Virus record (IMG/VR): IMGVR_UViG_3300044957_000619
Source: a virus
DNA: 64,000 bases
Reading direction: 5' to 3' (one strand)
A program made the position numbers and the translations under genes. The notes below the pieces were generated by a model that saw nothing but the letters and a program-made list of their open reading frames with translations, ran no database searches and had not been told where the DNA came from. Positions 13,568 through 39,124 of the stretch are shown one piece after another; position 1 is the stretch's first letter, and each line of letters opens with the position of its first letter.

Positions 13568-13571
13568 AAGT

Positions 13572-17825: not shown

Positions 17826-18682
17826 TGTTTAATTCCTTGTATCATTCCATATTCATCAAATTGAGGCATTCCACCCCATTTGCTTAACCATTTTTTTATA
17901 TTTTCTTGTTCAGCTCGTATTTGTCTAGAATCCGATTTACCATTGTTTTCTTCTAAACGGTGTGACCCGCGGGCTCCAAAATGCCAAACTAATGAATTTG
18001 TAGGTAATATAAATTTTATATCATGTTTCAACATTCGAAGAAACAAATCCATATCATCCCACGATGTAGGAGCAAATAATGGATCGTTACCGCCTACTTC
18101 ATCCCAAACTGATTTTTTTACTAATCCCGATACACCTTCGCCTTTAGGAATTTCAATATCTTTATTTAATCGAATAAAATCCTCAGCCCATTCATCAAAA
18201 TAATTAGTATCAAAATCATCATGATATGCACCAAATAATTCTTTAGGTACTATCGCAGTTCCTGGTCGTTGTGTTGGATTATTAAACATATCAGGTTCGA
18301 CTCTATGTGAGTTCACCCAAAGTTTTTCATTTGGATATTTTTCATGAATATCCATTAATGCTTTATCCCAATCTTTAGTTACATAAAAATCAGAATGAAG
18401 AAACATTATATACTCAGTTTCAACATGGTCGGCACATATGTTCATGCCCCCACCAATACCTCGAACATCGATGTTTTTAGGTTCAATGATTAAAGTTAAA
18501 TTGTATTTATTTTGATTTTTTTGTAACCATTCATTTGTACCATCTGTACAATTTTCAGCGTGAATGATAAATGGTGCGTTTTTGTAATAGCTATTTTTTC
18601 TAACAGATTCAATTGCTATCTTAAGATAGTGCAAATTATTCCATGTAGAAATACAAAATGTAATAGGATTAGAGTGTATCAT
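17822..18682 (-). CDS. glycosyltransferase family 2
   Basis: ISTWNN, ENCTDGT, HSD, WDDMDLF. Confidence 0.85.
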   Translation of the reverse strand: MIHSNPITFCISTWNNLHYLKIAIESVRKNSYYKNAPFIIHAENCTDGTNEWLQKNQNKYNLTLIIEPKNIDVRGIGGGMNICADHVETEYIMFLHSDFYVTKDWDKALMDIHEKYPNEKLWVNSHRVEPDMFNNPTQRPGTAIVPKELFGAYHDDFDTNYFDEWAEDFIRLNKDIEIPKGEGVSGLVKKSVWDEVGGNDPLFAPTSWDDMDLFLRMLKHDIKFILPTNSLVWHFGARGSHRLEENNGKSDSRQIRAEQENIKKWLSKWGGMPQFDEYGMIQGIKQ

Positions 18683-19298
18683 AATATGCATTTTGTTTGA
18701 TTTGTCGATCTATTGTTTTTGGATGATATAAAGAATATTCTTCTTGCATTGGTAAAGTTGCATATTTCGTAAAACCTTGCAATACTTCATGCACTTTATT
18801 TTTCCACATAATGTTATCATCATTACGATAAATTCTCCATTGATAATCTGGCCAATTAATCCACCCATGTTCGTTAACATTCCAGCCCCATTGTTGCATA
18901 TGATCTTGATTCATACCTTCTACAGTATTTATTCTAGGTACTAACATAACATCTACCGTAGGATTTGTTTCTAATATGCTTGGTAGTTGCATTATCAAAG
19001 TTTCGTTTGGTACTTCATCTGCATCAATTTGAAAAATAAAATTGCCAAAACAATACTGCGTTAATTTATTTTTCCATTCAGCAAAATGACTTTGAAATTT
19101 ATCCTGCCAAATAGTTATATGATTATCATAATGACGTTCATAATGTTTCAGCGTTGATATCATCTCATCATCTGCTTTTGTTATATCTAACAATACAACA
19201 ATTTCATCATTTTCTTGTTTATGTTTAAGTAAGAAATCAAGTAAACGCTGTATTTCTTTTAATTCGTTACAGACTGTTATAGCATAACTTATTTTCAT
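18669..19298 (-). CDS. glycosyltransferase family 2
   Basis: ISYAITVCNE, QIDADE, WPDYQWR, VHE. Confidence 0.85.
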   Translation of the reverse strand: MKISYAITVCNELKEIQRLLDFLLKHKQENDEIVVLLDITKADDEMISTLKHYERHYDNHITIWQDKFQSHFAEWKNKLTQYCFGNFIFQIDADEVPNETLIMQLPSILETNPTVDVMLVPRINTVEGMNQDHMQQWGWNVNEHGWINWPDYQWRIYRNDDNIMWKNKVHEVLQGFTKYATLPMQEEYSLYHPKTIDRQIKQNAYYDTL

Positions 19299-20548
19299 GC
19301 TTCAACTTTTTTTAATTTTGGCAATGTCAATTTAGGTAATGACAATTCTACTTGTTTTGGTACTGATGCTAATGCGACATCAACGATACCTAATACTTTT
19401 TCATATACGGCTGCTATTGCAGTTTTAGTAAACGTTGAATTAACAAAATAACGTTGGCGTTTAGCTAATTCTTGCCATTTTTTATAATTCTTTTGCACTT
19501 CCTTCATCATTTTTCCGGCGTATGCATAATCCGGCGTAAACCAATTGGCGCCGTTAATTAAAAATTCATTCTGCGCAGATGGGTGAATTTCAGTTAATCC
19601 GCCTGGTAATGCACATATAAAATCTTTTTTAAGGAAATCTGATTGACCCGAATAATGTGGTGCAATGATCGGTTTGCCGGTTGTTGAATATTCAAGTAGT
19701 GGCCGACCAAAGCCTTCAGATTTTGTAAATGATATCATGGCTTTTATTTTAGGATGATTATAAAGTAAATTCATTTCTTCATCAGTTAAGTCGCCATGTA
19801 ACAAATATACATTTGGTAATTTTGCTCCAGGAAACATATCTCGAATTTGATTGATTTTATTTTCAATCTCCATTCGATCCATAACAGAATATGTTGCTCC
19901 GCTAGATTTCATAACAAGTGCAGGTGCATCTTTTTGATTTTTATATGTATTAAAAAAACAATGAATTAATCCACTGATATTTTTTCGATCTTCTCCAACT
20001 TGTCCTTGTAACCAATGTCCAACCGATAAAAACGCAAATGTTTCTGGAATTTGATTTAAAATACTTAAATTACCAGAAATCTTATTGTTATAAATTGTTT
20101 CATCAAAATATTCTGGAACTACTTCAATTCGAGCTGTAATAGATTTATTATTTTGTTTTGCCGTATTTTCGAATACAGTTTTAGTAAATTCACTTGGAAC
20201 AATTACTAGTTGCATTGAATTTAAATTATCAATCCACGCAGTTGGACAAATATCTCCTTCAGTACCTGCAGTAATACCAATATTAAATTTACCTACAGCT
20301 TGAAATTCATTAGGAACCGTGATTTGAACCCAAATATCAGGTTGTGATGTTAATGGCAACGGAATAATACGTTGATTCCAATCAATTGGAATTGGATATG
20401 TAAATGGAGTGTGACCCCATGGTAATGAGACTAATTTAATATCCCATTCTTTACTCCGTTGTTCTATAAAATTTGTAATTACTTCTCGTGCATGATGTCC
20501 ATACCCCGATTGCGTTGCTACTGGTGATGCTATAACTACTGTTCTCAT
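19295..20548 (-). CDS. glycosyltransferase family 4 (GT-B)
   Basis: SGYG, DRKN, EGFGRPLLE. Confidence 0.85.
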   Translation of the reverse strand: MRTVVIASPVATQSGYGHHAREVITNFIEQRSKEWDIKLVSLPWGHTPFTYPIPIDWNQRIIPLPLTSQPDIWVQITVPNEFQAVGKFNIGITAGTEGDICPTAWIDNLNSMQLVIVPSEFTKTVFENTAKQNNKSITARIEVVPEYFDETIYNNKISGNLSILNQIPETFAFLSVGHWLQGQVGEDRKNISGLIHCFFNTYKNQKDAPALVMKSSGATYSVMDRMEIENKINQIRDMFPGAKLPNVYLLHGDLTDEEMNLLYNHPKIKAMISFTKSEGFGRPLLEYSTTGKPIIAPHYSGQSDFLKKDFICALPGGLTEIHPSAQNEFLINGANWFTPDYAYAGKMMKEVQKNYKKWQELAKRQRYFVNSTFTKTAIAAVYEKVLGIVDVALASVPKQVELSLPKLTLPKLKKVEA

Positions 20549-22038
20549 TATTTTACAATTCCTATATTATCGTATGTTGTTTTCGTAACTTTATTTAATG
20601 TATATCTAGGTCGGGTTTCAATTTTTGCTGAAAATAAATAATCTATCATTTCAATCATTTTGTTGCCCATTTGTTCGGCAGTAAGTCCATTTTGTAATGC
20701 CCATGTTCTTCCTGCTAATCCCATTTCAGCTCGAAGCATTTCTGGTGTATTATACCAATATTGAATTGCAGCCGCCACATCTTCGAATCGCACTCGATCA
20801 TCAAAAATATACGGCGTTGGCGGCGAACCTTGTAGTGATCGATTAGATGGAAATACTGGTTTTGCCCATATGCCATGTAATTTATATTTTCCGGTATGAT
20901 TGGTTGCAAAATTGCCATCGAACCGTATCCATTCTTCATTTTCATCTACAAAACCACACTGATCTTGCAATCCGCCAGTTACATTATTGATAATAGGTGT
21001 CCCTGATAATATAGCTTCAGTTGAGCTTAGTCCCCAACCTTCATTACTGGCAATATTAACTACAACATCTGCAACATTATACATCGCATTTAATTCATTT
21101 GCCATTAATTTTTGTTCGGAAAATATAATCTTACATTTAGGAGCAATTGCATTTTTTACAGCAATTAAATCCGTACCATTTTCATCAACAGCTTGTGTAT
21201 GCATTACTAATGCAACGCGTTCTTTTTGTTCTTCTGGTAAGCTGTCTACGAATGTTTTGAAAGCTAAAATTACATCCCCAGGTTGTTTTCTTCTAATATT
21301 GCGATTATTCCAAAAAACTACAAAATCTACATCATTAGCTGATTTAATTTTTTCATACATTTGTTTGAATATTGGATCGGTAGATGCCAATGGTTTAAAT
21401 ACGTTATGGTTTAAACCGTGAGGAACAAATCCGGTAATAATTTGATTCCAATTTACATCCATTGATAGACTTTCACTGGCATCATAATTTACAACTTCAA
21501 ATCCGTTTTGTGTAAGTACTTCGCGATGAATATTATCTGATTGTTTGCTAATACCCATGATCAAATCACAACTTGCATAAAATGGAGCATTCCACATAGG
21601 ATATGGAAGATCATCCCAAATTGAATAATAAATTATAGGAATATTATATGTTGTTTTAATTTCATGTTCAATTGCATATAACCATGTCCAATAACGAGGA
21701 TCGGTAAAATGAAATATTGCATCTGGTTGCTCTTGATTGAGAATTGCAAATAATATGTTACGGTCTCCGTATCCATTCCATGGTATAATTTTAACTGATG
21801 CATCGGTTATGCCCGTTTCTTGTGCAACTTGAGCAGATAAATCAAAAGCCTGGCCAGCTTCGGGGTGTTTAAGTGCACCGCCTAATTGTACCCAATCATA
21901 ATGATGTACTGTGTTAAAAATAATTTCTCGGCTAATGGTACCAATGCCTGATGGCAATCGAAAATCGTCTGCTAACAATAAAATTTTCTTTTTTTTAGGG
22001 TTGTTAGGATCGATCTTTTTTAATTTTGGTAACTGCAT
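20548..22038 (-). CDS. glycosyltransferase family 4 (GT-B)
   Basis: SGIG, NRNIRRK, NEGWGLSSTEA. Confidence 0.85.
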   Translation of the reverse strand: MQLPKLKKIDPNNPKKKKILLLADDFRLPSGIGTISREIIFNTVHHYDWVQLGGALKHPEAGQAFDLSAQVAQETGITDASVKIIPWNGYGDRNILFAILNQEQPDAIFHFTDPRYWTWLYAIEHEIKTTYNIPIIYYSIWDDLPYPMWNAPFYASCDLIMGISKQSDNIHREVLTQNGFEVVNYDASESLSMDVNWNQIITGFVPHGLNHNVFKPLASTDPIFKQMYEKIKSANDVDFVVFWNNRNIRRKQPGDVILAFKTFVDSLPEEQKERVALVMHTQAVDENGTDLIAVKNAIAPKCKIIFSEQKLMANELNAMYNVADVVVNIASNEGWGLSSTEAILSGTPIINNVTGGLQDQCGFVDENEEWIRFDGNFATNHTGKYKLHGIWAKPVFPSNRSLQGSPPTPYIFDDRVRFEDVAAAIQYWYNTPEMLRAEMGLAGRTWALQNGLTAEQMGNKMIEMIDYLFSAKIETRPRYTLNKVTKTTYDNIGIVK

Positions 22039-22070: not shown

Positions 22071-22475
22071 TTAACCTAGTATAACCACCGGTTTTTGTAA
22101 TTTTTTAGTTCGCGTCCAGGCTGTTTGTAATACTGGATCTAATTGCATTTGATTGCTTAAAATCATCATGTAATCACATCGTTCTGCAATAAGCTGCATT
22201 CGATGATGAAGCTGCGAAAAATGATATGGTTTTCCATAATATGATTCTGGCATTGCTGAGTACATGTTATGTCCTGAAAATGACGGATTAAATTCTTCAT
22301 ATTGCAATCCAAATTCTAGTGCATATTTTCTAACCATACTGTTAGCTCCTTCGTTGCCGCCGGCACCGACTATAACTAAATCATCTCCAAACTTCTTTTT
22401 TACAAGTTGAAGCGTTTCTTGTATCTTTCTTTTATTCTGCCAATCTGTATTTCCGATGATTGCAATTCGTTTCAT
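22071..22475 (-). CDS. SLOG superfamily (YspA/DUF2493-like) protein
   Basis: IAIIGN..W, VGAGGNEGAN, YA...GL pattern. Confidence 0.6.
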   Translation of the reverse strand: MKRIAIIGNTDWQNKRKIQETLQLVKKKFGDDLVIVGAGGNEGANSMVRKYALEFGLQYEEFNPSFSGHNMYSAMPESYYGKPYHFSQLHHRMQLIAERCDYMMILSNQMQLDPVLQTAWTRTKKLQKPVVILG

Positions 22476-22695: not shown

Positions 22696-22724
22696 ATTAT
22701 AATAAATTTTATTCACGAATCCTA
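22696..22724 (-). promoter_or_regulatory. class A promoter TAGGAT-N17-TATAAT
   Basis: exact 17 nt spacer; ATG 5 nt downstream. Confidence 0.65.
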
Positions 22725-23662
22725 GCATCTTTAGGACAACGTTCGTAATCAGTTTTGAATGGACAATAATTGCAATTAACTGCACCTTTACCTGCAACAG
22801 CAACATAGTTTCTATCAGCATTCTTATTACCTTCAGAGTCAAAACAAGCATCAACAAATGCATCAATCTGCCGTTGAATTTTCTTTTGAGTTACCGAACC
22901 AGCAGCTGGTTTATGATTTTGAATTCGCTTTTGTGGAAACATTGATTCTTCAACAATCTTACGTTTTACAATAAAAAATTCAACTTCAATCTTTTCACGT
23001 GGAACGCCAAATTGTTCTGCAAAGTAATTTTTATATGCAATTAATTGTGCTGACTTCATTGCATCTGATTTGGCTGATTGTTTCCATCCATTACGTGATG
23101 TTTTGATATCAAACAATTTGAAAGTATTGGTAGGTACATGGCGCATAACAACATCAATGAATCCATACCAATATACTGAAGGATTCTTTGGGGATGCAGG
23201 ATGGCATAATTCAATCTCAATGCCTACTAACTCCCAATCTTTGCTTGAAAAGTATTGTCCTCTTCTTTTACTAAACCATTGTAAAATGGCAGCTCCATCT
23301 TCTAAATATTCTGCCAACTGCAATGGATTTGAAAAATGTTCTCCGCCAAATTCTTGCACACAACGTGCATATTCGTCTCGAAGTTTATTTTGTAATATTC
23401 CACGCAAATCTAACGATTCGGCTTTCTTAACAGACTCTGTATACATTACGGTTAAGAAATATTGAAATGTTTCGTGGAAAGCTGTTCCAAACACCGTTTC
23501 AATTGATGCTTGGAACGGAGCTAATCCATCGATATATGATAGTTTCCAAGCAAGTGGGCAACGTTCATACATTGACCATTGCGAATAAGAAATCTTTCTT
23601 GGTACAGAAGCTGCATCTCGTACTGCTAATCTATATACTGGATTGATATAAGTTCCTTTCAT
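22709..23662 (-). CDS. PD-(D/E)XK nuclease (RecB/Cas4-like exonuclease)
   Basis: ISYSQ...CP, FGTAFH, GFIDVV, DIKT, QL.AY, CNYCPF. Confidence 0.85.
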   Translation of the reverse strand: MKGTYINPVYRLAVRDAASVPRKISYSQWSMYERCPLAWKLSYIDGLAPFQASIETVFGTAFHETFQYFLTVMYTESVKKAESLDLRGILQNKLRDEYARCVQEFGGEHFSNPLQLAEYLEDGAAILQWFSKRRGQYFSSKDWELVGIEIELCHPASPKNPSVYWYGFIDVVMRHVPTNTFKLFDIKTSRNGWKQSAKSDAMKSAQLIAYKNYFAEQFGVPREKIEVEFFIVKRKIVEESMFPQKRIQNHKPAAGSVTQKKIQRQIDAFVDACFDSEGNKNADRNYVAVAGKGAVNCNYCPFKTDYERCPKDARIRE

Positions 23663-26820: not shown

Positions 26821-26849
26821 ATTATATTAATTTTTATATAAAATTCCAA
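26821..26849 (-). promoter_or_regulatory. class A promoter TTGGAA-N17-TATAAT
   Basis: exact 17 nt spacer; ATG 5 nt downstream. Confidence 0.75.
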
Positions 26850-27478
26850 TTTAAGTATCTATCATTCTTACATCTATTAGACACAGTTTCAGCACATATA
26901 TTATAAAATCTAGCTGCTGATTGTAATGATTTGAATATTATTCCATTAATACATACTTGTTTTGCATTTTTAGATGCAGGATTGCCTTTATAATTATTAT
27001 GTCGTTCTTTAAACTTACCTTTAAAATTACCATGAGATTGGCCCGAATTAAAAAAAATACCATCATGTATATTTTTTAACTTTGTTTCTTCTGCCCGATT
27101 ATGTATTTCTAGATTTGCTCCTGGATTTTGATCACCCGAATAGCCTAATTTATGTTTTATTTTTTCATATAAAATGTCTCCTTTTTTATATGTTAAACCA
27201 CCATTGCCGCCTTGTGTCATATTATAACCATTTTTATATGTATCTAATTTAGATATCCAAAATCGTTCTCGTTCATTTATATCATCGGTTTCATTTAATG
27301 TTTCTAAAATAATCCATTCAAATTCGGAATTTAATCTTAAAGATTGATGAAAATTTGTATCTGATAACAGTCGTAATGCCGAATCATAATGACCATTCTT
27401 ACGTTCTTCTAAAGTTTTTGTCGTCTTCCCAACATACATTTTATCATTATCTTTATTTTTAGCACAATATATTATCAT
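26834..27478 (-). CDS. GIY-YIG homing endonuclease (Seg-like)
   Basis: IIYC...MYVGKT, R...H, ERFWI, GYNMT.GG; NUMOD1-like C-terminus. Confidence 0.85.
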   Translation of the reverse strand: MIIYCAKNKDNDKMYVGKTTKTLEERKNGHYDSALRLLSDTNFHQSLRLNSEFEWIILETLNETDDINERERFWISKLDTYKNGYNMTQGGNGGLTYKKGDILYEKIKHKLGYSGDQNPGANLEIHNRAEETKLKNIHDGIFFNSGQSHGNFKGKFKERHNNYKGNPASKNAKQVCINGIIFKSLQSAARFYNICAETVSNRCKNDRYLNWNFI

Positions 27479-27530
27479 AATGACCTTTTTATATAAATAT
27501 AGACCGGTCTGAATTTTGGTCTGAATCTTT

Positions 27531-27956
27531 TTAATTACCCGTTGATCCAAATCCTCCTAGACCTCGTTTTGTGTCTGATAATGAATCAGTTATTTCCCAT
27601 TCAATTCGCTCTACTCGAGACATAACCAATTGTGCAATCCGTTCTCCTTTTGCAAATTCAGCAACTGTGCTACCGTGATTGATTAATATTACACCAATTT
27701 CGCCTCGATAATCAGCATCAATAGTACCAGGAGTATTTAAAACGGTTACTCCTTGTTTTAACGCTACTCCGCTGCGAGGTCTTACTTGAATTTCAAATCC
27801 TGCAGGAATTTCTACATATAAACCAGTTTTTGCTAAAACTCGTTCACCTGGATTCATCATGATATATTCGGTACATCTTACATCTAATCCGGCACTCTGA
27901 GGAGTTTCGTAAGCCGGCAACGCATTTAGCGATTCGTTTATTACTCGTACTTGCAT
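27531..27956 (-). CDS. dut: dUTPase (trimeric)
   Basis: AGLD, RSG, GTIDADYRGE, RGLGGFGSTG. Confidence 0.95.
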   Translation of the reverse strand: MQVRVINESLNALPAYETPQSAGLDVRCTEYIMMNPGERVLAKTGLYVEIPAGFEIQVRPRSGVALKQGVTVLNTPGTIDADYRGEIGVILINHGSTVAEFAKGERIAQLVMSRVERIEWEITDSLSDTKRGLGGFGSTGN

Positions 27957-27959
27957 AAT

Positions 27960-28670
27960 TTAATTTTGTAACATTACAAGCCAATAGGTTGATTCAAAAT
28001 CAGCCCCCGTAAATTCAATTCGAGCTAATCCATCTGGCGATACTTTTAATTCTCCGCTATCTCCGCGATTTGCTACTAATACTTCTTTTAATTTGTCTGC
28101 TGAGAAACAAACTGGTTTCATCGTTGTCGTTGTGGTTGGCCCTACTTCAAATGAAATATTATCTGCATTAACGGTGGTATAATTGATGATGAATTTAACT
28201 TGTTCATTAACAACTTGCACTGCAAAGTTTTTTGCATCCGGTAATGCATTTTTTGCTTTGATAAATTTGCTAACAAATTCTTCATTAACTGGAATAGTAA
28301 CTTCATAATTTGGTTCTGCATTGATTGATGGTACTGCAGGAATAACTGTCGTATCAGCCAACATAAATGTTGCCTGCGTGCTACCTTCTGAAATTTTCAT
28401 TGCATAATTTTTACCTGCCGCATTTTTTACATCAATTGCAATATTTTCGCCCAATGCTCCTAGCATTTTAATCAATGCTCCGGTATGATTAATACCTAAC
28501 ATGCCCGACATAAACGGCTTTGTATTCCATTTAATTTTACCTACAATGGTTTGATCCATATCAATCAATTCGCATCCGATTGATTCTTCTTGTTCTTTTA
28601 ATGTAACCGCTTCGCAATTTCCTGCTAAATAATAACGATTAATGAACGATTGTAACTTGCTTTTTTCCAT
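27960..28670 (-). CDS. DNA sliding clamp (gp45-like)
   Basis: 236 aa, next to the clamp loader; C-terminal FS...LKEVL.AN...VS.DGL..I.F pattern. Confidence 0.65.
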   Translation of the reverse strand: MEKSKLQSFINRYYLAGNCEAVTLKEQEESIGCELIDMDQTIVGKIKWNTKPFMSGMLGINHTGALIKMLGALGENIAIDVKNAAGKNYAMKISEGSTQATFMLADTTVIPAVPSINAEPNYEVTIPVNEEFVSKFIKAKNALPDAKNFAVQVVNEQVKFIINYTTVNADNISFEVGPTTTTTMKPVCFSADKLKEVLVANRGDSGELKVSPDGLARIEFTGADFESTYWLVMLQN

Positions 28671-28683
28671 TATTTATTCCAAT

Positions 28684-29943
28684 TTAAAATGTAAAGAATT
28701 TATTAAAATTTTCTGCATCAGTGGTTGATATACTGCTACCACCGAATTTTTTATATGTTTTGATGTATTTTTCATATACTTGAGGAGCCGAGTCTGGATC
28801 AGCAAACATTTCATGCAAAGACAAAATTACATCATATAAAGCTCTTGGTATTACTGTTTCTAACAATTCAACGTGACTATCAACCATTTGATTGATTTCA
28901 TTTGCTGCTTGTACATACAAATGCGTATTGTGAACTACCATTCTTGGCATTGCTTCTTGCGAAAAACGATCCAGGCCATCTGCTGTTTTACCACCTAATA
29001 ATTCATAGGTAAAATCTGCACAAGCAGGGCATCCCATTGCACAAGGAACATGTTGTGTTAAATCGATTGCAACTTCTCCGGTTTTACCTTGTTTGATGTG
29101 TGCCTTTCTTCGATATTCAGCATTCTTTGGAAAATACAATTCAGAAAATGTTTGTGACTTGTAATTTGTTGAATGAAGATATGTTCCAAATACTGGATAT
29201 TGACCTGGAGATGAAGAATCCGTTGTAATATAAATTCTATTGCCCGTTAACGCATTCATTAACTTTTGCAATGTAGCCAAAATAAAGAAATCTGAAATTT
29301 TACTAATTCCAAGCAAGTGAACATATTCTAATCGTTTATTTTCAAACTCTCGTTCTTTAAGCATCAAAGAAACCGCAAACATAAAATCAACTAATTTCTG
29401 CGGCCCGCCAATAGCCCAACCTTGAAAATCAAAATGCTTGAATTTATGATACCACCAAGTATATTCATCTGCATTTGAACCTTGCAACATGTTCAAGAAT
29501 TTTGTCTTGCCACTTTGATGTTTTTCAAACCAAGCAAAATTATCAAAGCTAATGTCAGCACATAGTGCAAATTGATTTTTATATTTTGTTTTAGGTGGGA
29601 TATCTAAGTTAGCTGCAACATCGCTGTTTGCTTCTAACCAATAAAAAATCTTTTCTCGTAATTCATTGCTATATGGTAATGCACCAGTTGCAATCTGATA
29701 ACCACCCGAGTCACCAAATACTAGCACATCTTTTTCTAATCCCAATTGATCTCGAAAATCCATTTTCTTGTAATGATGTCCGGCCGTCACCAAAAAATAT
29801 GGATGACGCCATTCTGCAGGATATCTAGAATCAAAGAATTTTACCGGCACGCCGCTTATAAACTTCATATCTTTCTTGAATGCAGACACCATACTGCCTG
29901 CAGACAAAGATGGAAAGTATATGAATCTTTTATTTTCGCTCAT
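28684..29943 (-). CDS. dpdA: 7-deazaguanine DNA transglycosylase (TGT-like)
   Basis: DSGGYQ, LDIPP, HLLG, TDSSS, CxxxCxxC...HN zinc site; clustered with folE/queD/queE. Confidence 0.8.
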   Translation of the reverse strand: MSENKRFIYFPSLSAGSMVSAFKKDMKFISGVPVKFFDSRYPAEWRHPYFLVTAGHHYKKMDFRDQLGLEKDVLVFGDSGGYQIATGALPYSNELREKIFYWLEANSDVAANLDIPPKTKYKNQFALCADISFDNFAWFEKHQSGKTKFLNMLQGSNADEYTWWYHKFKHFDFQGWAIGGPQKLVDFMFAVSLMLKEREFENKRLEYVHLLGISKISDFFILATLQKLMNALTGNRIYITTDSSSPGQYPVFGTYLHSTNYKSQTFSELYFPKNAEYRRKAHIKQGKTGEVAIDLTQHVPCAMGCPACADFTYELLGGKTADGLDRFSQEAMPRMVVHNTHLYVQAANEINQMVDSHVELLETVIPRALYDVILSLHEMFADPDSAPQVYEKYIKTYKKFGGSSISTTDAENFNKFFTF

Positions 29944-30958
29944 CGTAGTCCTTTAAAGTATTAATCAATTTAGTTGCTGAAAAAAAGTTACTATGTAATT
30001 TTATTGCTAGTCGTGCAACATGTTCCGTTAAATCTTGTTGTTCGTATTGCAAAATTGCCTTTACTGCAGAATCAACGCTGTCTGCTTGTTTAAACATTGG
30101 TTCATACATTTCTACATATGATAATCGATTTGGAACTATAGGACAAGCTCCAGCACATGCAGATTCATACATTGAAATGCCCAACGTTTCTTGATCTGCA
30201 AATGATACTGCAAATCGTGCACGTTGAAGCAATTCGTGATATTCTCGTTTAGATAAATTCATTTCCATTGCAACACAAAATTGATAATGTGCTAGTTCGG
30301 GCCGTGCAGCTAATTCTAGAAATAAATCTAAACGTTTTTCGGGTGCAATGCGATGCGGAAACACAATGATGTTTTCTTTTTGTGACCAAAGTCTCGGCGT
30401 AATCATATTGTGAGTATATTCCATGGGCCAACCTGTTTTGTTAAAAGATCTGTCATGTGAAATATAATATGTTTTACTCATTAGTTTAAAATGTGCTGCA
30501 GTTGCAATCCAATTATGATCATATGCTGCAATCATGGCCTGTTCAGCGTGTCTAATCCATGGTTTATCTCCTACGAGACGACCTAAAAAATCATTTGGGT
30601 CATATGAACCCGCGTGCCAAAGTCCGTGCGTTATAACGGGAATATTTAAAAGTTCACTCATGTATTTTACATTGATAATACCTGGATGCCACGCATCTGT
30701 AAAAATAATATGATCGCCTGGCAGTATATGTGCGTGAGTAAATAATTCTGCTAACTTATGAATTTGAGTTGATTTGTACATATTGGTGCCACCAAAATTC
30801 AAAAATGCACCTGTAGTAGCTGCCTCTGGAATTGTTAAATCGCCTTGGATAACTTCTACATCGAAGCCATTATCTCTAAGCAATTGCGGCACGTGCCATT
30901 TCCATTCGCACGTATACCGAGTTGGTACTGATTCTATGTCTACTAAAAATATTCTCAT
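29930..30958 (-). CDS. GT-B fold glycosyltransferase
   Basis: HRIAPEK, QETLGISMYE, PNRLSY.E; likely start MRIFLVD. Confidence 0.75.
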   Translation of the reverse strand: MRIFLVDIESVPTRYTCEWKWHVPQLLRDNGFDVEVIQGDLTIPEAATTGAFLNFGGTNMYKSTQIHKLAELFTHAHILPGDHIIFTDAWHPGIINVKYMSELLNIPVITHGLWHAGSYDPNDFLGRLVGDKPWIRHAEQAMIAAYDHNWIATAAHFKLMSKTYYISHDRSFNKTGWPMEYTHNMITPRLWSQKENIIVFPHRIAPEKRLDLFLELAARPELAHYQFCVAMEMNLSKREYHELLQRARFAVSFADQETLGISMYESACAGACPIVPNRLSYVEMYEPMFKQADSVDSAVKAILQYEQQDLTEHVARLAIKLHSNFFSATKLINTLKDYDERK

Positions 30959-31314
30959 GCTTTTGATTTTTTTATGCACGCACCATTTTCCCAATCTTCC
31001 CAAACTTCTACTTTGTAAAGAGACGGAAATGATTCTAATAACCATTCTCCAATTGCTTCGCAAGACATTGACCCGAATTCTAATACATTTGGTATGTTGC
31101 TACCAAATTCAATTCGAAGTCCTTTTTGTATTTTACGATTCAATAAAATAAATTCTTCATCGCGATCTGTATGCGTTACTCGTGCATAACAACGAAAGCC
31201 AAACATGTGACGATGTCTATCTGATAAAAATGCTACTTCTGGAAAAACATCTTTGGCATCGGGCCAACAATGGAATCCTTCAATGCTAAAACTAACCATA
31301 ATACTATATTTCAT
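30955..31314 (-). CDS. dpdL: QueD-like T-fold protein, putative CDG decarboxylase (DpdL)
   Basis: EGFHCW, LSDRHRHMF (LxxxHRHxF), SCE, VWEDWENG. Confidence 0.7.
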   Translation of the reverse strand: MKYSIMVSFSIEGFHCWPDAKDVFPEVAFLSDRHRHMFGFRCYARVTHTDRDEEFILLNRKIQKGLRIEFGSNIPNVLEFGSMSCEAIGEWLLESFPSLYKVEVWEDWENGACIKKSKA

Positions 31315-31976
31315 ACTTTATTTTTATTTTGTTGACGTTTTGTTTGAGCTGCACTCATTTTAGCTATAGTATCTTTTGAAAATACTCTACCTTTCAATGT
31401 TGCACTAGTTTTTTGTCTTGTTTCTATAGAAGGTATTTTACCTAAATGCGCTTGTCTATTTTTTTCTTTTGCATCTTCCGAATGAGTTTTATCTTTCATC
31501 GGAGACGGTTTACCTAAATGCGCTTGTCTATTTTTTTCTTTACTTTCGTTAGAATGGTTTCTTAATTTACTAGCAGCTCCAATTTTTTGTTTATGTTCTT
31601 TAGATAATATACGGTTACTCATTTTTGTAGAAAACATTTCTATACGGTTACTCATTTTTGTAGAAAACATTTCTTTTAACTGAGCATATTCTCTCGAACT
31701 AATAATATAATCTCGTTCTTGATATTGATTTTTTATATTAATCATCATATAATAAGCAAAAAATAAATTATTATCTAATGGATATAAGTAATGCAATAAC
31801 TTATGTGCTATATAATGTTCTCGTGCTGTAAGTAATACTAAATTAGTTTTTATATCACTTCCGCCTATACATTTTGGAACAATATGATGTTGTTCAAAAT
31901 ATACGCCACAACCTTTTTGTCGATTTTCGGATTGTGCTTGTTCTATTAGTTGATTATATATTTTTTGATAATTCAT
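31311..31976 (-). CDS. free-standing HNH homing endonuclease with NUMOD3 repeats
   Basis: MNYQKIYNQL, HHIVPKCIGG, LTAREHYIAH, HS.E.KEK repeats. Confidence 0.85.
   Translation of the reverse strand: MNYQKIYNQLIEQAQSENRQKGCGVYFEQHHIVPKCIGGSDIKTNLVLLTAREHYIAHKLLHYLYPLDNNLFFAYYMMINIKNQYQERDYIISSREYAQLKEMFSTKMSNRIEMFSTKMSNRILSKEHKQKIGAASKLRNHSNESKEKNRQAHLGKPSPMKDKTHSEDAKEKNRQAHLGKIPSIETRQKTSATLKGRVFSKDTIAKMSAAQTKRQQNKNKV
31608..31673. repeat. perfect 33 bp tandem duplication inside the HNH gene
   Basis: tatacggttactcatttttgtagaaaacatttc x2, encoding EMFSTKMSNRI twice. Confidence 0.9.
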
Positions 31977-32388
31977 TTACTTTATCTGCTATTAATTTTT
32001 TATATTTAGTTGTTGACCAACCATGGTCTCTGTTTAAGTATCGAATTGGAAGATCTAAATCATCGCCGGTAAATGACTTACCAACATAATCATCGCCCAA
32101 ATAACGAACATATTCAGCTGATTGGTTACCGGCAAATTGCTTTAATTTATAATGCAATTCTGATTCTAATGTATATGGAATAACATGATTAACGTGTCGC
32201 AATGCAATCAACATCTCCGTTCTATCTTTAACTGAAAGAATGGGTTTCATTTTTTCGGGACGTTCAACGGTTGGATCGGTTTGAAGCAATACCCATATTT
32301 GATCACATTCGTCTTGCATTTGTTCAAACATTGCAATGTAACCTGGATGCAATACATCAAAGCTACCAGCAATAAGTCCTATCTTCAT
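31954..32388 (-). CDS. cytidylyltransferase (TagD/HIGH family)
   Basis: GSFDVLHPGY, K..PI.S, LGDDY, RDHGWSTT. Confidence 0.85.
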   Translation of the reverse strand: MKIGLIAGSFDVLHPGYIAMFEQMQDECDQIWVLLQTDPTVERPEKMKPILSVKDRTEMLIALRHVNHVIPYTLESELHYKLKQFAGNQSAEYVRYLGDDYVGKSFTGDDLDLPIRYLNRDHGWSTTKYKKLIADKVNELSKNI

Positions 32389-32807
32389 TGTCTATCAAAT
32401 TTATAGTCATCTAAAGTAACATGTTGCATATTGTGCACGGTTGTACAATACAAAGAATAATCTGCATATACAACTTTGATGCTATCTGTTTTCTTTAACA
32501 ATGCAGCATCTTCACAATCCAACATCAATAAAATGTGTGCTCGAATTCTAATCATTGGCGGAATATGTTTTAGCATACCTGGAGTAACTTCTATAGTAAC
32601 AAATGTAGTATCCGTTATCATATCGAATATTGAACTCCATGCTTTCCGATCAACTAATTGCTTTGTTGCGGGCGAACAAATATAAATGTGCGCACAAGGA
32701 GTTAATTTTTCATATGTTGCTTTCATATCTGCAATGAATAGCGTTTCGATATCGGTAAATCGTCCTTCAACTTCTTTACCATACCAATGTGTCTTATAAC
32801 CAATCAT
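32385..32807 (-). CDS. conserved hypothetical protein
   Basis: WYGKEVEG...TLF...HIY; first gene after a promoter, upstream of the dpd genes. Confidence 0.6.
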   Translation of the reverse strand: MIGYKTHWYGKEVEGRFTDIETLFIADMKATYEKLTPCAHIYICSPATKQLVDRKAWSSIFDMITDTTFVTIEVTPGMLKHIPPMIRIRAHILLMLDCEDAALLKKTDSIKVVYADYSLYCTTVHNMQHVTLDDYKFDRQ

Positions 32808-32812
32808 ACTTT

Positions 32813-32841
32813 ATTATAATAAATTTATTCTTGTTTTCCAA
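32813..32841 (-). promoter_or_regulatory. class A promoter TTGGAA-N17-TATAAT upstream of the dpd operon
   Basis: exact 17 nt spacer; ATG 5 nt downstream. Confidence 0.75.
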
Positions 32842-35350
32842 ATGAAAAGAACTTTGCTACTGAATTATTTTCTGGAAATGCACCCCAATTCATTGCAGCA
32901 TAAAAATCATCCAATTTGTTTTTTAATTCTTTTTCAAATATTTTGTTTCGGTCTATGTATTGCGTAACAAACTCTTCAATTTCTTTTGGGTCTTGATAAC
33001 CACGCAATGCCATTGTATCAAATCCATATGGATTATCTGATAAGTATGCCCATTTAACCTTTTCTCCATTTTGAATAGGTTGAACATCTCTAATACCGTG
33101 CATTGATAACAAATCATTGAAATTGATTGCTGACTTAACATGTGCTGGAGTACCCGATGAGTATCCCGTAAATGGTTTGCGACCTTTAGTAAATTTTGAT
33201 ATTTCTTTGACACCTGAATTCTTCATTACATTGAGTACTGGTGATTTCTTGAGGTTGTTTTTAAATTTATGAATCATATCCGTTGTAGCAGTTTTGTCTC
33301 GTTCTTTAAGAATGTGCCACAATGTTTCTTTCATGATTTTTTTGAAATCTTCTGGAAATGATGATCTAACAACATCCAATCCTTTGATATCTAATTTATC
33401 CGTAGGTTTGCCTTCTTTGAAAATTACCCATTGTGCATATCGTTTCTTTGCGATCCATAAACCAGATTTGGCAACATATTCTTGTTTGATTTGCCAACGG
33501 TGTGATGTGGTATTATGGAATACTTCAGCATATCGGTCATACATTTGATTTACTAATGCTTGTACTTCTGATGCAATTGCATTGGTTTGTGCAATCATAA
33601 ATTGTTCATCCGATTCATCATATCTAGAAAAACGTTTTGCAATAAGTGGCAAGCTAGATACAAATGTTGAATCTGTATCTGTATAAAAAGCAAATTCTGC
33701 TTTGCCGTTGGTTGCATTAACAAAATGATCTTGTCCTGTTTCTTTTGCATAATGATTGTTAATAACCTTTGCTGAAAATTTAATTACGCTTTGGCCAGTT
33801 GCTGTAATTGCACCTGCATTATCTAAATCGTGAAAACGAAATGTTTTAAGTCCTAATACTCCATAAAATGAATTAAGCAATACTTTTTGCGTTAATTGCA
33901 TTGCATCATAAAATTTATATTCTTCAGAACCTTCTTCATATTCATCTCGTTTGTCTTTAAATTCAACTCGTTCATTAAACCATTTTTCTAGAATAGCTGG
34001 TAAAAATCCACGTCGGTCATTTCGATAAACTGTGCCATTACTTGCAACGGTTAAATTGTTATCTTGCAACCACGTTTTAACATCTTGTGTATATGTACCA
34101 TCTGTAAATTTTACTTGCTGCGGATCTGATTTCAATAAACATTCTTGGTCCCAATTTTGAATTACGCCCAATTTAGTTTCTGGTGAAATATTCAAACTCA
34201 TAATGATGCTTGGATATAATGAAGTTAAATCCAAGTCATATATCCATTTATATAATCCAGGCACCGGATCTTTTACATATGCTCCTTCTAGTGCATCTGC
34301 TTCTGTTTCTTCTTCTACAAATCTAAATTGTTTGTTAGGAGCAACCAATCCATTGCGTTTTAAATCTACAATGGCAGCACCATCCAGGTATTTAGATGCA
34401 TAATATACATCTTCATATGGAACGTGCCCTTTATGGCATATGGTTCTTGCAAGTGCAATTAATTGCAGTTTATCATCCATTTCATAAATAAGATCAACGT
34501 CGGTAACGTTATATTCTACAAATTTATGAATGTCATCTGCAAACAATTGATCTAAATCTCCTTCATATTCAACCTTACCTCTACCCAATTCTTTTTTGGC
34601 AACTGTATCTAATCGATAATTTGGTAATTCGGTATATGTAAACTTTTTATACAATGTCAAATAGTCTAAACTAGATATGCCAAATATTTTATATCGACCT
34701 CTGTTTTTATTCCATTCGACAATGCCTGCTGGAGATAATTTTTTAATTGCTTGTGCACCTAATACCTTTTTGATGCGATTGATAAGATATGGAATATCGA
34801 AATTATCTGTATTCCATCCTGTAATTACAGTGGGTTGTATTTCTGCAAATGCATTGATAAAACGCATCAACATGTTTGCTTCTGAATCAAATATTTCTAC
34901 TTGATATTTATTAGTAGCAAATGCATCATGTTTCACTCTTCTTTCTTCATCTAACAGCAAAACTTGCATGGTACGCCCAGCTTTATCATAATATGCAATG
35001 GACGTTATTCGCAAACGAGCTTCTTCAGGAGTCGAATACCCATCTTCGTCCCGTTCTACTTCGATATCAAAGAAAAAGTCTTTATGCCCTTTCGAAACTA
35101 AATCGCTTTCGTAATAAAGGTCAATAAGCGTACGCATTTCTTCATTTAAATCAGATTCATATGCATTTGGATTATCTTTCCAATTGCCATCTACCCGATC
35201 TAAACGAACGCCATCCAATGACTGATATTGTCCCGTATCTGATGGTAAGTATGCATATGGTTTGAATGGGAACTTTTGATGCCCCAATTCATCATCGAAA
35301 ATGTGCATAATACCAGTTTTTTTATCGTAACCTATTGCTTGATATGCCAT
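32825..35350 (-). CDS. DNA polymerase family B
   Basis: DIE exonuclease I, GWN.DNFD, DLTSLYPS, KVLLNSFYG, YTDTDS, KKRY. Confidence 0.95.
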   Translation of the reverse strand: MAYQAIGYDKKTGIMHIFDDELGHQKFPFKPYAYLPSDTGQYQSLDGVRLDRVDGNWKDNPNAYESDLNEEMRTLIDLYYESDLVSKGHKDFFFDIEVERDEDGYSTPEEARLRITSIAYYDKAGRTMQVLLLDEERRVKHDAFATNKYQVEIFDSEANMLMRFINAFAEIQPTVITGWNTDNFDIPYLINRIKKVLGAQAIKKLSPAGIVEWNKNRGRYKIFGISSLDYLTLYKKFTYTELPNYRLDTVAKKELGRGKVEYEGDLDQLFADDIHKFVEYNVTDVDLIYEMDDKLQLIALARTICHKGHVPYEDVYYASKYLDGAAIVDLKRNGLVAPNKQFRFVEEETEADALEGAYVKDPVPGLYKWIYDLDLTSLYPSIIMSLNISPETKLGVIQNWDQECLLKSDPQQVKFTDGTYTQDVKTWLQDNNLTVASNGTVYRNDRRGFLPAILEKWFNERVEFKDKRDEYEEGSEEYKFYDAMQLTQKVLLNSFYGVLGLKTFRFHDLDNAGAITATGQSVIKFSAKVINNHYAKETGQDHFVNATNGKAEFAFYTDTDSTFVSSLPLIAKRFSRYDESDEQFMIAQTNAIASEVQALVNQMYDRYAEVFHNTTSHRWQIKQEYVAKSGLWIAKKRYAQWVIFKEGKPTDKLDIKGLDVVRSSFPEDFKKIMKETLWHILKERDKTATTDMIHKFKNNLKKSPVLNVMKNSGVKEISKFTKGRKPFTGYSSGTPAHVKSAINFNDLLSMHGIRDVQPIQNGEKVKWAYLSDNPYGFDTMALRGYQDPKEIEEFVTQYIDRNKIFEKELKNKLDDFYAAMNWGAFPENNSVAKFFSFGKQE

Positions 35351-35859
35351 TAATTAACCTTGTATATATCTTGTAATTCACGATTTAAACCCAAATCGTC
35401 ATCTAATCCATATCCAACTACCCATTCATTGCCAATTTCAAATCCACAATAGTTAGTTAAATCAACTCCACCTCGTCGCTTTAATAATGTAACAACTTTA
35501 ACTGCAGTCAGGCCAAGACTGTTTACCATAAACATCATTTCCATAATGCTAGCACCCGAATCGCAAATATCATCTACAATATAAACTCGTTTGCCTCGCA
35601 AATCTATTTCTAATGATTTAGTAATTAATACGCCCCCAGAATTATCTCGTTTGTCATATGATTTTAATCTTACGAAGTCAATTTCATGATTGATGGTCAT
35701 CGCTCGACTTAAATCTGAAAAGAAATGCATTGCTCCGTTAAGAACACAAATCAATACTGGGGGCAATGTTGCTCCCGATTCTTTATGATCCTGTGAAATT
35801 GCATCTGCTAATTCTTTGATGCGTTGTTGTATTTGTTGTTGTGTTATGATTTTTTCCAT
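35350..35859 (-). CDS. hpt: hypoxanthine/guanine phosphoribosyltransferase
   Basis: VLNGA, VYIVDDICDSG PRPP loop, WVVGYGLD. Confidence 0.9.
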   Translation of the reverse strand: MEKIITQQQIQQRIKELADAISQDHKESGATLPPVLICVLNGAMHFFSDLSRAMTINHEIDFVRLKSYDKRDNSGGVLITKSLEIDLRGKRVYIVDDICDSGASIMEMMFMVNSLGLTAVKVVTLLKRRGGVDLTNYCGFEIGNEWVVGYGLDDDLGLNRELQDIYKVN

Positions 35860-36674: not shown

Positions 36675-36832
36675 TTTTCTTCCAATTGATGTATTAAAAA
36701 TCGTAATCTATTAATTTCGGCAATTACATCATTGCCCAATTCTATTTTAGACATTGCAGATAAATCCATTACTTGCGATTCTAAAACTTTGATTAGTTCC
36801 TGCTGCGTTTCTATTAATTTGTCTTTATTCAT
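36671..36832 (-). CDS. 53 aa hypothetical coiled-coil protein (not in ORF track)
   Basis: manual translation MNKDKLIETQQELIKVLESQ...QLEEK*; start overlaps the queE stop. Confidence 0.55.
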   Translation of the reverse strand: MNKDKLIETQQELIKVLESQVMDLSAMSKIELGNDVIAEINRLRFLIHQLEEK

Positions 36833-37617
36833 TATACTCCTCGTTTAGTGTCAAATGCAATGATATGGTCTCGTCCCGTCATGTTGTATCCGCGCTCTGC
36901 ACACATTTCGAAAACTACAGGATACATATGTATCAATTCTTGCCGAGTATCACCTGCAGGCATGATAAATGTTTTTTCTTTTGGAATACCTAACTCTACT
37001 CTAAAGTTTTCTATTTCTTGCAAGTTTTCTTCTGTACCATCCCATACTGGCTTGTAATGATAATCTGCATGAAACGCAATCATTTGTTTGATTGCTTCTC
37101 GATTAAGACGAAATTTATTATGTTGCGCCACCATTTTCTCATCTGTAATCGTCCCTTGCGGCGTAGCAACACCCACAACGGGAACACTGTTACTAAACTT
37201 AGGGCTAAGACTAACCAAGCCAATAGGATAATCAGTATCGATAAAATGTGATCCTTCTGTTTCAATCGTGATAAGAATGTTTCTTTCATGTGCAAAATGC
37301 GTTAATTCATTTACCAAAGCCGGATGCATTGTTGGTGCGCCGCCAGTTAACATCATTTCTTTAATGTGAGGATTTTCATCATATATAGCAATGATATCGT
37401 TAAAGGTAAATGTTCCTTTTTCTGGATGTATACTTGTGTACCAAGAATCGCACCAACCACCTTCTCCAAAGAAGCATCTATGTGTGCAACCCGTAGTTCG
37501 CACTGCTATTGTTGGTCTGCCAAAGCGTGACCCTTCGCTTTGCACGCATCGATACAATTCTACTATAGGCAATGTTTTTGTGTAATCTGTTATTCTTTTA
37601 GAATGGGAGGTCGTCAT
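36832..37617 (-). CDS. queE: 7-carboxy-7-deazaguanine synthase (radical SAM)
   Basis: E.Y.CVQSEG..G.P..AVR..GC, LTGG.P, IETEGS, SLSPK. Confidence 0.85.
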   Translation of the reverse strand: MTTSHSKRITDYTKTLPIVELYRCVQSEGSRFGRPTIAVRTTGCTHRCFFGEGGWCDSWYTSIHPEKGTFTFNDIIAIYDENPHIKEMMLTGGAPTMHPALVNELTHFAHERNILITIETEGSHFIDTDYPIGLVSLSPKFSNSVPVVGVATPQGTITDEKMVAQHNKFRLNREAIKQMIAFHADYHYKPVWDGTEENLQEIENFRVELGIPKEKTFIMPAGDTRQELIHMYPVVFEMCAERGYNMTGRDHIIAFDTKRGV

Positions 37618-37969
37618 CGTAGTACTCATTACTATTGGTAACATTGTTTTCTAATTTATTTAATAAAGTTTCAAATTTAGATTCTAAATCTTCAAGCTGT
37701 TGATATATTTCTATTAATGCAGATCGTCTTACAATTGGCGTTAAATCCATTTCAGGTTTAGTTGCAAAGTATTCATCTAAAAATGATACGGGATATAATT
37801 GCACTTGATTGTATTCTGGTTTTTGAACTTCTTTTGGTAGCATTCTCCATTTAATCTCAACGCCTCGTTTAATAGCTTCAGCTGTTACTTCTCGACCAAT
37901 GTTCGATCCGCCAGAACTTTTACCTAAATATTCAAAAAGCGATAAATATGTTTCTTCATTATTCTTCAT
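37598..37969 (-). CDS. hypothetical protein
   Basis: YLSLFEYLGK...LYP.SFL.EYF. Confidence 0.55.
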   Translation of the reverse strand: MKNNEETYLSLFEYLGKSSGGSNIGREVTAEAIKRGVEIKWRMLPKEVQKPEYNQVQLYPVSFLDEYFATKPEMDLTPIVRRSALIEIYQQLEDLESKFETLLNKLENNVTNSNEYYDDDLPF

Positions 37970-38423
37970 AGCTGGCTGAATTTCTTTCGTGTTCATAAAC
38001 TTCTACTTTTGTTGTTCGAACCCTACCTTCGGTTTCTTCAAACAAAAAGTTATTAATTACCGTATACAAGTATTCAGCAAATCGTTCACATCCGGTAGCA
38101 GGTAAAATTCGTAGTTGAATAATACCATCTTCATACATTTGTTTGAAATGCGGTAAATATGGGTCGTCTTGTGCTATAATTGTAGTATGATCTAATAGGT
38201 ATGCAAAATAGTCTTTTGGAGACATACCGTTAATTTGTGTTTTTGCACGTTTCATGCCACCAAAGTCCCATACCCAATTTCTTTCATCTAAATCACCCTC
38301 AAACCATACACGAAATGATACAGCATACCCGTGTAAGAATTGACAATGGGTACCTTTTGCTCGCCATTGTCGAAAGCAAGTCGAATAGCCATCAAATAAT
38401 TTTGTTGAAGTGTATCGTGCCAT
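37959..38423 (-). CDS. queD: 6-carboxy-5,6,7,8-tetrahydropterin synthase
   Basis: CQFLHGY, WVWDFG, LDHT, GCE, VEVYE. Confidence 0.88.
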   Translation of the reverse strand: MARYTSTKLFDGYSTCFRQWRAKGTHCQFLHGYAVSFRVWFEGDLDERNWVWDFGGMKRAKTQINGMSPKDYFAYLLDHTTIIAQDDPYLPHFKQMYEDGIIQLRILPATGCERFAEYLYTVINNFLFEETEGRVRTTKVEVYEHERNSASYEE

Positions 38424-39124
38424 TAATTATAACCTTTTACGAATTGATAAAATTCTGATCTTGCATTCCCATCATCTAAAAATGCTCCAGACAATTTTGC
38501 AGTCTTCATCGAAGCTCCGCCATGCTTAACACCTCGACATTGAACGCAATTATGTGTTGCTTCAATCATAACCGCAACACCTTTATTATTTTCAATAAGT
38601 TCATCTATTGCATGATGTATTGCTACTGTTAATTGTTCTTGTATTGCACCTCTTCTACCAAAATGCTCTACTACTCGATTCAATTTACTTAAACCGATAA
38701 CATTGCTATTTTCACCCGGAATATATGCAACATGTACATTACCCATAATGGTTTGATGATGATGTGAGCACATTGAAGTTAATGGAATACCTCCTTCGAA
38801 TACAATGCCATCATATCCGTCACTAGGAAATGCTGTGATTCCTGACATTGGATTGTATCGACCAGCCCATAGGTCATTAACATATGCTTTTGCAACTCGC
38901 CGTGGAGTATCAGATGAATTCGGATCTTGTTCCCAAGCTACCCCTAATGCACGAAGAAATTCTCCATAATAAAATGCAGCATCATCAATAATTGCTTGTT
39001 TTTCTTTTTGAGTTAATTGAGCATCAGGGCCAAACATTGCTTGTTTAGTTGCTAATTGTGTGGAAATTCCATTAGCAAAACCAGATTTAACTAATTCTAA
39101 ATTATTTCTTTGTTCTTTTGTCAT
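38423..39124 (-). CDS. folE: GTP cyclohydrolase I
   Basis: TPRRVAK, SMCSHH, GLSKLNR, IQE, HNCVQCRGV. Confidence 0.95.
   Translation of the reverse strand: MTKEQRNNLELVKSGFANGISTQLATKQAMFGPDAQLTQKEKQAIIDDAAFYYGEFLRALGVAWEQDPNSSDTPRRVAKAYVNDLWAGRYNPMSGITAFPSDGYDGIVFEGGIPLTSMCSHHHQTIMGNVHVAYIPGENSNVIGLSKLNRVVEHFGRRGAIQEQLTVAIHHAIDELIENNKGVAVMIEATHNCVQCRGVKHGGASMKTAKLSGAFLDDGNARSEFYQFVKGYN

Follow-up and report, generated by a model that had tools for sequence, protein, structure and literature searches.

The DNA considered here, hereafter the window, is a stretch of 64,000 nucleotides from the IMG/VR virus record IMGVR_UViG_3300044957_000619, an AT-rich sequence (~33% G+C) whose source is a freshwater T4-like phage and in which almost every gene lies on the minus strand. 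Between the genes for the DNA polymerase and the sliding clamp sits a block of six minus-strand genes (28684-32807) that encode, in the order of transcription, an unknown protein of 140 amino acids (hyp140), a TagD-like nucleotidyltransferase, an HNH/NUMOD3 homing endonuclease, a DpdL-type T-fold protein paralogous to QueD, a glycosyltransferase (GT) of the GT-B fold and GT4 type, and a DpdA-like DNA-guanine transglycosylase. A first-pass annotation of the window had singled out these six open reading frames as a tightly packed operon for modifying DNA with 7-deazaguanine, and all six were found; neighbours overlap or abut, the successive junctions from hyp140 to DpdA overlapping by 4, 23, 4, 4 and 14 bases. 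Comparison with related loci indicates that the conserved core of the block is DpdL-GT-DpdA and that the GT is a true member of this module. It would seem likely that the sugar is destined for the modified base.

The T-fold protein (119 amino acids; 30955..31314, minus strand) is 38% identical over 98% of its length to CGPG_00067 of the Cellulophaga phage phiST (E 4e-15), the protein named DpdL by Cui, Hutinet et al (NAR 2023; PMC10516641). The signature of DpdL is LxxxHRHxF, found in place of the QueD motif CxxxHGH (PMC10516641); in the window protein it reads LSDRHRHMF, and the motif, L30-xxx-H34-R35-H36-x-F38, is invariant in 12 homologues. A DpdL profile also matches the archaeal PTPS-like protein PH0634 (2dj6) over its full length (1.6e-3). 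The genome context fits this assignment, with FolE, QueD, QueE and DpdA all encoded and no queC found. On its sequence the protein is therefore best described as a DpdL homologue, in keeping with what the first-pass annotation had proposed from the motif.

The 419-amino-acid product of the last gene (28684..29943, minus strand) gave no Pfam or PHROG match as a single sequence, and the NCBIfam arcTGT model was matched at merely 2.5e-3. A profile built from 10 homologues, on the other hand, matches structures of the tRNA-guanine transglycosylases TGT/QTRT1 (4.4e-6) and the Salmonella DpdA structure 7ui4 (3.7e-3), and the DSGG motif, D114, H209-x-LG and D242 are invariant in the alignment. Its earlier description as TGT-like is borne out, and the protein can be assigned by sequence to the TGT/DpdA superfamily, in a long clade that stands apart from the DpdA3 of phiST. 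The DpdA3 type itself (phiST CGPG_00065, 259 amino acids) was considered and rejected for the window protein, with hhalign giving merely E 2.5e-3 and a probability of 12%, and DpdA3 queries with phmmer and tblastn found nothing in the window or in the GT-bearing loci. As regards a Cys-rich zinc site, the motif C-x3-C-x2-C is present in the window DpdA and its close relatives and is not kept in the distant members of the alignment. The C-terminus of the protein, ...AENFNKFFTF (28684-28715), ends in a KFF[ST]F tail that is common to DpdA and the DNA polymerase, the C-terminus of the latter reading ...NSVAKFFSFGKQE (window 32825-32870); both lie near the sliding-clamp gene.

The start codon of the intervening GT gene (342 amino acids; 29930..30958, minus strand) overlaps the dpdL stop. 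This ATG at 30958 was preferred over the TTG at 31063 because the relatives begin MKIFLVD. The protein scores 28.9 bits against Pfam Glycos_transf_1 (cut-off 26.4), and its AlphaFold2 (AF2) model (pLDDT 86.9, pTM 0.85) has the two Rossmann domains of the GT-B fold. A Foldseek search returned 475 matches in the Protein Data Bank (PDB) at E <= 1e-3 with GT4 enzymes on top, the best (E 6e-10 to 1e-7) being glycogen synthase, BshA, tetrahydrobiopterin glucosyltransferase, MshA and PimA. Every one of 30 aligned sequences, at identities as low as 27%, has the EX7E motif (E257...E265), R203 and K208; since these residues are kept, the enzyme looks catalytically competent. A complex of DpdL with the GT, predicted from alignments A4 and A2, reached a score of 0.00 where the mark was 0.32 and bears neither way on the association. 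The family is plentiful in metagenomes, where it counts at least 7,998 proteins, and an exhaustive profile search gave 235 clusters at 50% identity (E <= 1e-30).

Linkage was assessed in 42 related viral contigs with the GT, the counts being limited to contigs that include the relevant flank; the nearest virus record (G001) is an 11-kb fragment without DpdA. All the related loci whose upstream flank is available show DpdL adjoining the GT (39/39), and DpdA occurs in 41/41 of those with the flank relevant to it; both counts take in loci L037-L042, with a GT identity of 39-43% and a different gene order. A more distant sample comprised six representatives of 50%-identity clusters, 31-38% identical to the window GT, the loci being obtained from contigs encoding GT homologues together with a closer alignment (A1). 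Here DpdL is adjacent in all six and DpdA is present in four, with FolE or QueE near in most. The same genes recur in cultured phages with their order shuffled: DpdA-GT-DpdL-QueE in Acidovorax phage ACP17, DpdA-GT-DpdL in the Pseudomonas jumbo phage PA5oct, GT-DpdA-DpdL-QueE in Xanthomonas phage BUDD, and DpdL-GT in Sinorhizobium phage Phosso, whose DpdA lies ~172 kb away. In BUCT-ZZ01, a cultured T4-like cyanophage of Synechococcus elongatus PCC 7942, the order is QueE-phosphoribosyltransferase-QueD-FolE-...-DpdA-DpdL-GT (module at L099:7694-10515); its GT gave no tblastn match and was found by the family profile only (E 4e-38). In phiST and MA9V-3, DpdL phages that lack the GT, the transglycosylase is the short DpdA3.

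The association extends to prokaryotic assemblies, in which the GT abuts DpdA in 31/33 loci. In Magnetospirillum aberrantis (L080:6321-12050) a CoiA-like nuclease gene is followed by GT-DpdL-DpdA-QueD, with a HEPN protein and a two-component system adjoining. In Shimia ponticola (L076:7489-13468) a gene of the vitamin-uptake transporter family Vut_1 lies upstream, followed by the GT, DpdA, an unknown protein of 585 amino acids and a second GT4; an integrase and an ABC-3C system are encoded close by. Both loci look like modification-plus-restriction islands. Across phages and bacteria the most constant partner of the GT is the long DpdA clade. The first-pass annotation had called for a survey of whether this GT family sits regularly beside dpdA and dpdL, and it was found next to one or both in every lineage sampled, phage and bacterial. 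The leading reading is therefore that the sugar is placed on deazaguanine. It could instead be supposed that the GT travels with the dpd genes only as a hitch-hiker and acts on an unrelated target, for example 5-hydroxymethylcytosine (hmC), 5-hydroxymethyluracil (hmU) or a glycan of the host or the virion. In favour of this are the large glycan island that the phage has elsewhere (see below) and, in one relative, a gene for a thymidylate-synthase-family protein whose substrate is not readable from sequence. There is also a remote GT4 (PhiXhv-15, 25% identity) that lies beside GlmS and a deacetylase with no dpd genes nearby, as is expected because this protein lies beyond the family boundary. 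Linkage of the GT to the dpd genes persists, however, in phage lineages of T4-like, jumbo, family-A-polymerase and cyanophage type as well as on bacterial chromosomes, despite a shuffled gene order, which hitch-hiking does not account for, making this the most improbable of the explanations considered.

The other three genes of the block fall outside the core. The TagD-like nucleotidyltransferase (144 amino acids; 31954..32388, minus strand) matches Pfam CTP_transf_like (7.5e-11) and, over its full length, the TagD structure 1coz (1.4e-8). The first-pass annotation had counted this enzyme, as a cytidylyltransferase, among the parts of the module, supplying the GT with a sugar or polyol-phosphate activated as a nucleoside diphosphate (NDP). 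This could be imagined as a dedicated pair, in which the TagD-like enzyme activates a polyol- or sugar-phosphate (of the CDP-glycerol or ADP-heptose type) for transfer to the base by the GT; the full-length similarity to TagD would suit such a role, as would the placing of both genes in one overlapping block in the window and in 18 close relatives. The gene is missing, though, from the other 15 of the 33 close relatives with the relevant stretch, all of which have DpdL-GT-DpdA. In the distant lineages none lies within 8 kb except for one copy 5 kb away in L065, and homologues turn up in phages belonging to other groups, among them cyanophages, Caulobacter phage Cr30, and phages of Vibrio and Streptomyces. 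Moreover, the HxGH signature reads HPGY in the window and in 18/18 relatives, the second histidine being replaced by tyrosine, although the C-terminal RxxGxSTT is retained as RDHGWSTT, and the scores fall far under the NCBIfam equivalog cut-offs (TIGR01518, 47 bits against 165.4; rfaE domain II, 45 against 181.5). We judge the nucleotidyltransferase to be an accessory gene by these comparisons and a dedicated pairing to be very unlikely. Given a gene outside the core with an odd motif, the pairing of an NDP-activating enzyme with the GT, and with it the polyol-phosphate idea, has little support; of the new modification that was originally proposed, it is the sugar on deazaguanine that stands as the leading reading.

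The HNH/NUMOD3 gene (31311..31976, minus strand; PHROG 655, 1.1e-42; NUMOD3, 8e-10) lies precisely at the junction of the nucleotidyltransferase gene with dpdL, where no related locus has a copy, and shows ~71% nucleotide identity to T4 mobB over 190 bases. It is a private insertion and not part of the pathway. Its protein contains a tandem duplication of 11 residues, MFSTKMSNRIE occurring twice. The first gene of the block, hyp140 (32385..32807, minus strand), adjoins dpdL in L042 (34% identity) and queD in L021, L022 and L036, and is thus linked to deazaguanine genes within the T4-like lineage. No match to hyp140 was found in Pfam, PHROG, the atlas or cultured phages, and Foldseek with its AF2 model (pLDDT 73.9) gave nothing at E <= 1e-3. 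A wide structural search returned generic alpha/beta folds (Z <= 6.1), among them three QueE entries at Z ~5. A QueE-like identity was rejected, since hhalign aligned only an N-terminal GxExEG segment without significance (E 0.05, probability 1%), and hyp140 has no similarity to CGPG_00066 of phiST.

The genes for making the base lie 4-6 kb upstream of the block, where the first-pass annotation had placed them. A class II ribonucleotide reductase comes first in the order of transcription, followed on the minus strand by FolE (GTP cyclohydrolase I; 38423..39124; Pfam GTP_cyclohydroI, 2e-44), QueD (PTPS family; 37959..38423; Pfam PTPS, 1.8e-14), an unknown 132-amino-acid protein, and QueE, the radical SAM synthase of 7-carboxy-7-deazaguanine (CDG; 36832..37644; Pfam Radical_SAM, 3.2e-5). 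A profile of the window QueE and its relatives matches the annotated QueE proteins of phiST (3e-90) and ACP17 (4e-56). The identities of all three enzymes are upheld. The reported lack of queC also held, both in the window, where tblastn with E. coli QueC gave chance matches only, and in a search beyond it, PF06508 finding none in a relative of 159,586 bp that is 100% complete and terminally repeated. Several small open reading frames separate QueE from a phosphoribosyltransferase (35350..35859, minus strand; Pfam Pribosyltran, 6.8e-21) directly upstream of the family-B DNA polymerase gene (32825-35350, minus strand), a position that is kept in relatives. A xanthine-guanine phosphoribosyltransferase also lies within the que cluster of BUCT-ZZ01 (L099:4441-4902). 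Such an enzyme may salvage the guanine released by DpdA or make a deazaguanine nucleotide.

At the head of the block is a promoter-like site, TTGGAA-17 nt-TATAAT (32813..32841, minus strand), that agrees with the consensus at 10/12 positions and from which the first-pass annotation had all six genes transcribed. The site is present and relatives retain it, even L026, in which something other than the polymerase gene lies upstream. As a promoter it is not statistically distinctive, with 49 such sites seen across the region against 58.6 +/- 7.0 in shuffled sequences, and it leaves no room for a leader: the TATAAT (-10) hexamer ends 5 bases upstream of the hyp140 ATG, so a transcript, if the site fires, would be leaderless. 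Downstream of the block the sliding clamp gene (27960-28670) is followed by genes for a dUTPase, a GIY-YIG endonuclease and clamp-loader subunits; the endonuclease, of the GIY-YIG/I-TevI homing type (26834-27550, between the dUTPase and clamp-loader genes), occupies a site that is empty in most relatives.

The glycan island referred to above (9556-22038) is, as the first-pass annotation had it, a separate feature, with a low GC content (0.28-0.30). It encodes five GT2 and two GT4 enzymes, one of the latter matching the 'GT4-conflict' family, together with FkbM-type and other methyltransferases, a PIG-L deacetylase, a hexapeptide acyltransferase, a short-chain dehydrogenase/reductase (SDR) and a DUF6492 protein. 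Between this island and the clamp-loader genes lie genes for a YspA/SLOG-family protein (22071-22475) and a PD-(D/E)XK nuclease (22709-23662).

Taken together, these genes suggest a route in which FolE, QueD and QueE would make CDG and, as there is no queC, the pathway would stop at this compound. DpdL would then probably decarboxylate CDG to 7-deazaguanine (DG), as proposed for phiST, and the long-clade DpdA would exchange guanine in the phage DNA for the deazaguanine. The GT4 enzyme would most likely transfer a sugar from a host nucleotide-sugar to the deazaguanine, whether still free or already inserted into DNA, to give a glycosylated 7-deazaguanine by which the genome would be shielded from restriction. 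For this predicted reaction we infer the acceptor, the atom modified, the donor and the order of the steps. The early part of the route has precedent, in that FolE, QueD and QueE give CDG, DpdL has been proposed as the CDG decarboxylase, an activity that is predicted, and DpdA enzymes exchange guanine for 7-deazaguanines (PMC10516641). When DpdL and DpdA of ACP17 were expressed in E. coli without the intervening GT no 2'-deoxy-7-deazaguanosine (dDG) was formed, and the authors suspected that further enzymes are needed (PMC10516641). The DNA of PA5oct resists cutting at restriction sites containing G, the chemistry being undetermined (PMC12191111). Both the lack of dDG with the two ACP17 proteins and the modified G of PA5oct fit a contribution from the GT. 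We would place moderate confidence in the pathway as a whole, from FolE to a GT that glycosylates 7-deazaguanine to shield the genome, on what the sequences suggest.

Several observations weigh against it. Neither DG nor CDG has a hydroxyl, so that O-glycosylation in the style of hmC or hmU lacks an obvious site and the sugar would have to be linked through N2, C7 or the carboxyl. With a median pI of 5.7 the GT family is acidic, unlike what would be expected of a DNA-binding enzyme, though this is a weak point. In 13 alphaproteobacterial loci GT-DpdA is found without DpdL, FolE or QueE, so in many such islands the base need not be a decarboxylated deazaguanine, and phiST reaches full replacement by dDG without any GT. 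Lastly, in two loci with family-A polymerases fused to a uracil-DNA glycosylase (UDG), L052 and L053, DpdL-GT is present and DpdA is not recognisable within 8 kb. The proteins that follow the GT in L052, L053, L055 and L076 were compared by hhalign and are not DpdA-like. In the first two of these loci (L052:1172-2485 / L053:4745-5830) DpdL-GT is accompanied by an exceptionally long radical-SAM protein (437 amino acids) or a long PTPS-domain protein (361 amino acids).

The want of an acceptor hydroxyl on DG or CDG would also be understandable if the GT made no modified base at all and served to help the long-clade DpdA, as an enzyme that glycosylates or stabilises it or as a handling surface, the final base being dDG or its carboxylated counterpart dCDG. 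The tightest partner of the GT across phages and bacteria is indeed DpdA and not a biosynthetic gene, and enzymes of the DpdA3 and DpdA4 families, as well as the pair of DpdA and DpdL from ACP17, showed no activity by themselves in E. coli (PMC10516641). However, the strict conservation of EX7E, R203 and K208 down to 27% identity is as expected of an active transferase, and in Phosso the GT adjoins DpdL with DpdA far removed. We therefore regard a helper role as unlikely, although it is the most credible of the alternatives. A little less credible is that the GT glycosylates a soluble 7-deazapurine or pterin to give a small molecule, such as an inhibitor or a storage form, and not a DNA base. 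HuiG, whose gene adjoins those for FolE/QueD/QueE, is a GT with a free 7-deazapurine as its assigned acceptor (PMC7439116), and L052 and L053, with no recognisable DpdA nearby, would be compatible with such a product. The tetrahydrobiopterin glucosyltransferases (5zes, 9v0l) among the best fold matches might likewise point to a pterin, but matches of this kind are generic for GT4. A soluble product is also difficult to reconcile with the GT abutting DpdA, a DNA enzyme, in nearly all the prokaryotic and most phage loci, or with bacterial islands that carry GT-DpdA without genes for synthesis of the base, and on balance seems quite unlikely.

Glycosylated 7-deazaguanine, if it is indeed the product, would be a new class of DNA base. 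Full-text searches of the literature turned up neither a glycosyltransferase belonging to a DNA deazaguanine pathway nor a glycosylated deazaguanine in DNA; to our knowledge, all sugar-bearing DNA bases are pyrimidines, derived from hmC and hmU. More tentatively, and with somewhat less assurance than for the pathway itself, we suggest that this could be the first glycosylated purine analogue in DNA, built by DpdL, a GT4 enzyme and a co-evolved long DpdA, abundant in freshwater T4-like phages and serving as the self-mark of restriction-like islands in bacteria. It would explain why DpdL and DpdA alone fail in E. coli, would offer a candidate for the chemical identity of the modified G of PA5oct, and bears on the restriction and modification-dependent defences that these phages evade or trigger. 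As cultured carriers exist (ACP17, PA5oct, BUDD, Phosso and BUCT-ZZ01) the idea is directly testable, and BUCT-ZZ01, which infects a model cyanobacterium, would be a handy experimental system.

The closest known system is that of phiST, which shares with the window FolE, QueD, QueE, a DpdL with LxxxHRHxF, the lack of QueC and a transglycosylase of the TGT superfamily encoded alongside the replication genes. In phiST, however, an unknown protein of 159 amino acids occupies the position of the GT, DpdA3 has 259 amino acids and the product is plain dDG (PMC10516641), whereas the window has a 419-amino-acid DpdA of another clade and a GT4 enzyme. A precedent by analogy for a GT acting on a 7-deazaguanine base is HuiG of the huimycin cluster of Kutzneria albida, to which has been assigned the attachment of N-acetylglucosamine (GlcNAc) to a free 7-deazapurine at the 2-amino group (PMC7439116; bioRxiv 10.64898/2026.04.15.718813). 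The likeness is one of context and assigned function, a GT encoded beside FolE/QueD/QueE and a sugar on a base derived from 7-deazaguanine; HuiG differs in belonging to secondary metabolism, in taking free O6-methylated 7-cyano-7-deazaguanine (preQ0) as its acceptor, and in a cluster that has QueC and no DpdA.

The alpha- and beta-glucosyltransferases of T4 (AGT and BGT) resemble the predicted role in being phage GT-B enzymes that add sugar to a modified base once the DNA has been replicated, and so protect the genome from restriction. Their acceptor, however, is the hydroxyl of hmC, and they belong to other families, GT72 and GT63; neither is among the best Foldseek rows listed for the window GT. 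Finally, the bacterial Dpd system (DpdA/DpdB/DpdC), which gives the deoxynucleosides of preQ0 (dPreQ0) and of 7-amido-7-deazaguanine (dADG), and the phage DpdA1 and DpdA2 systems likewise use a TGT-like enzyme to exchange guanine in DNA for a 7-deazaguanine, but they need QueC, for preQ0, and have no glycosyltransferase. Like the bacterial Dpd system, the DpdL-GT-DpdA module of the window is also found in bacterial islands beside defence genes.

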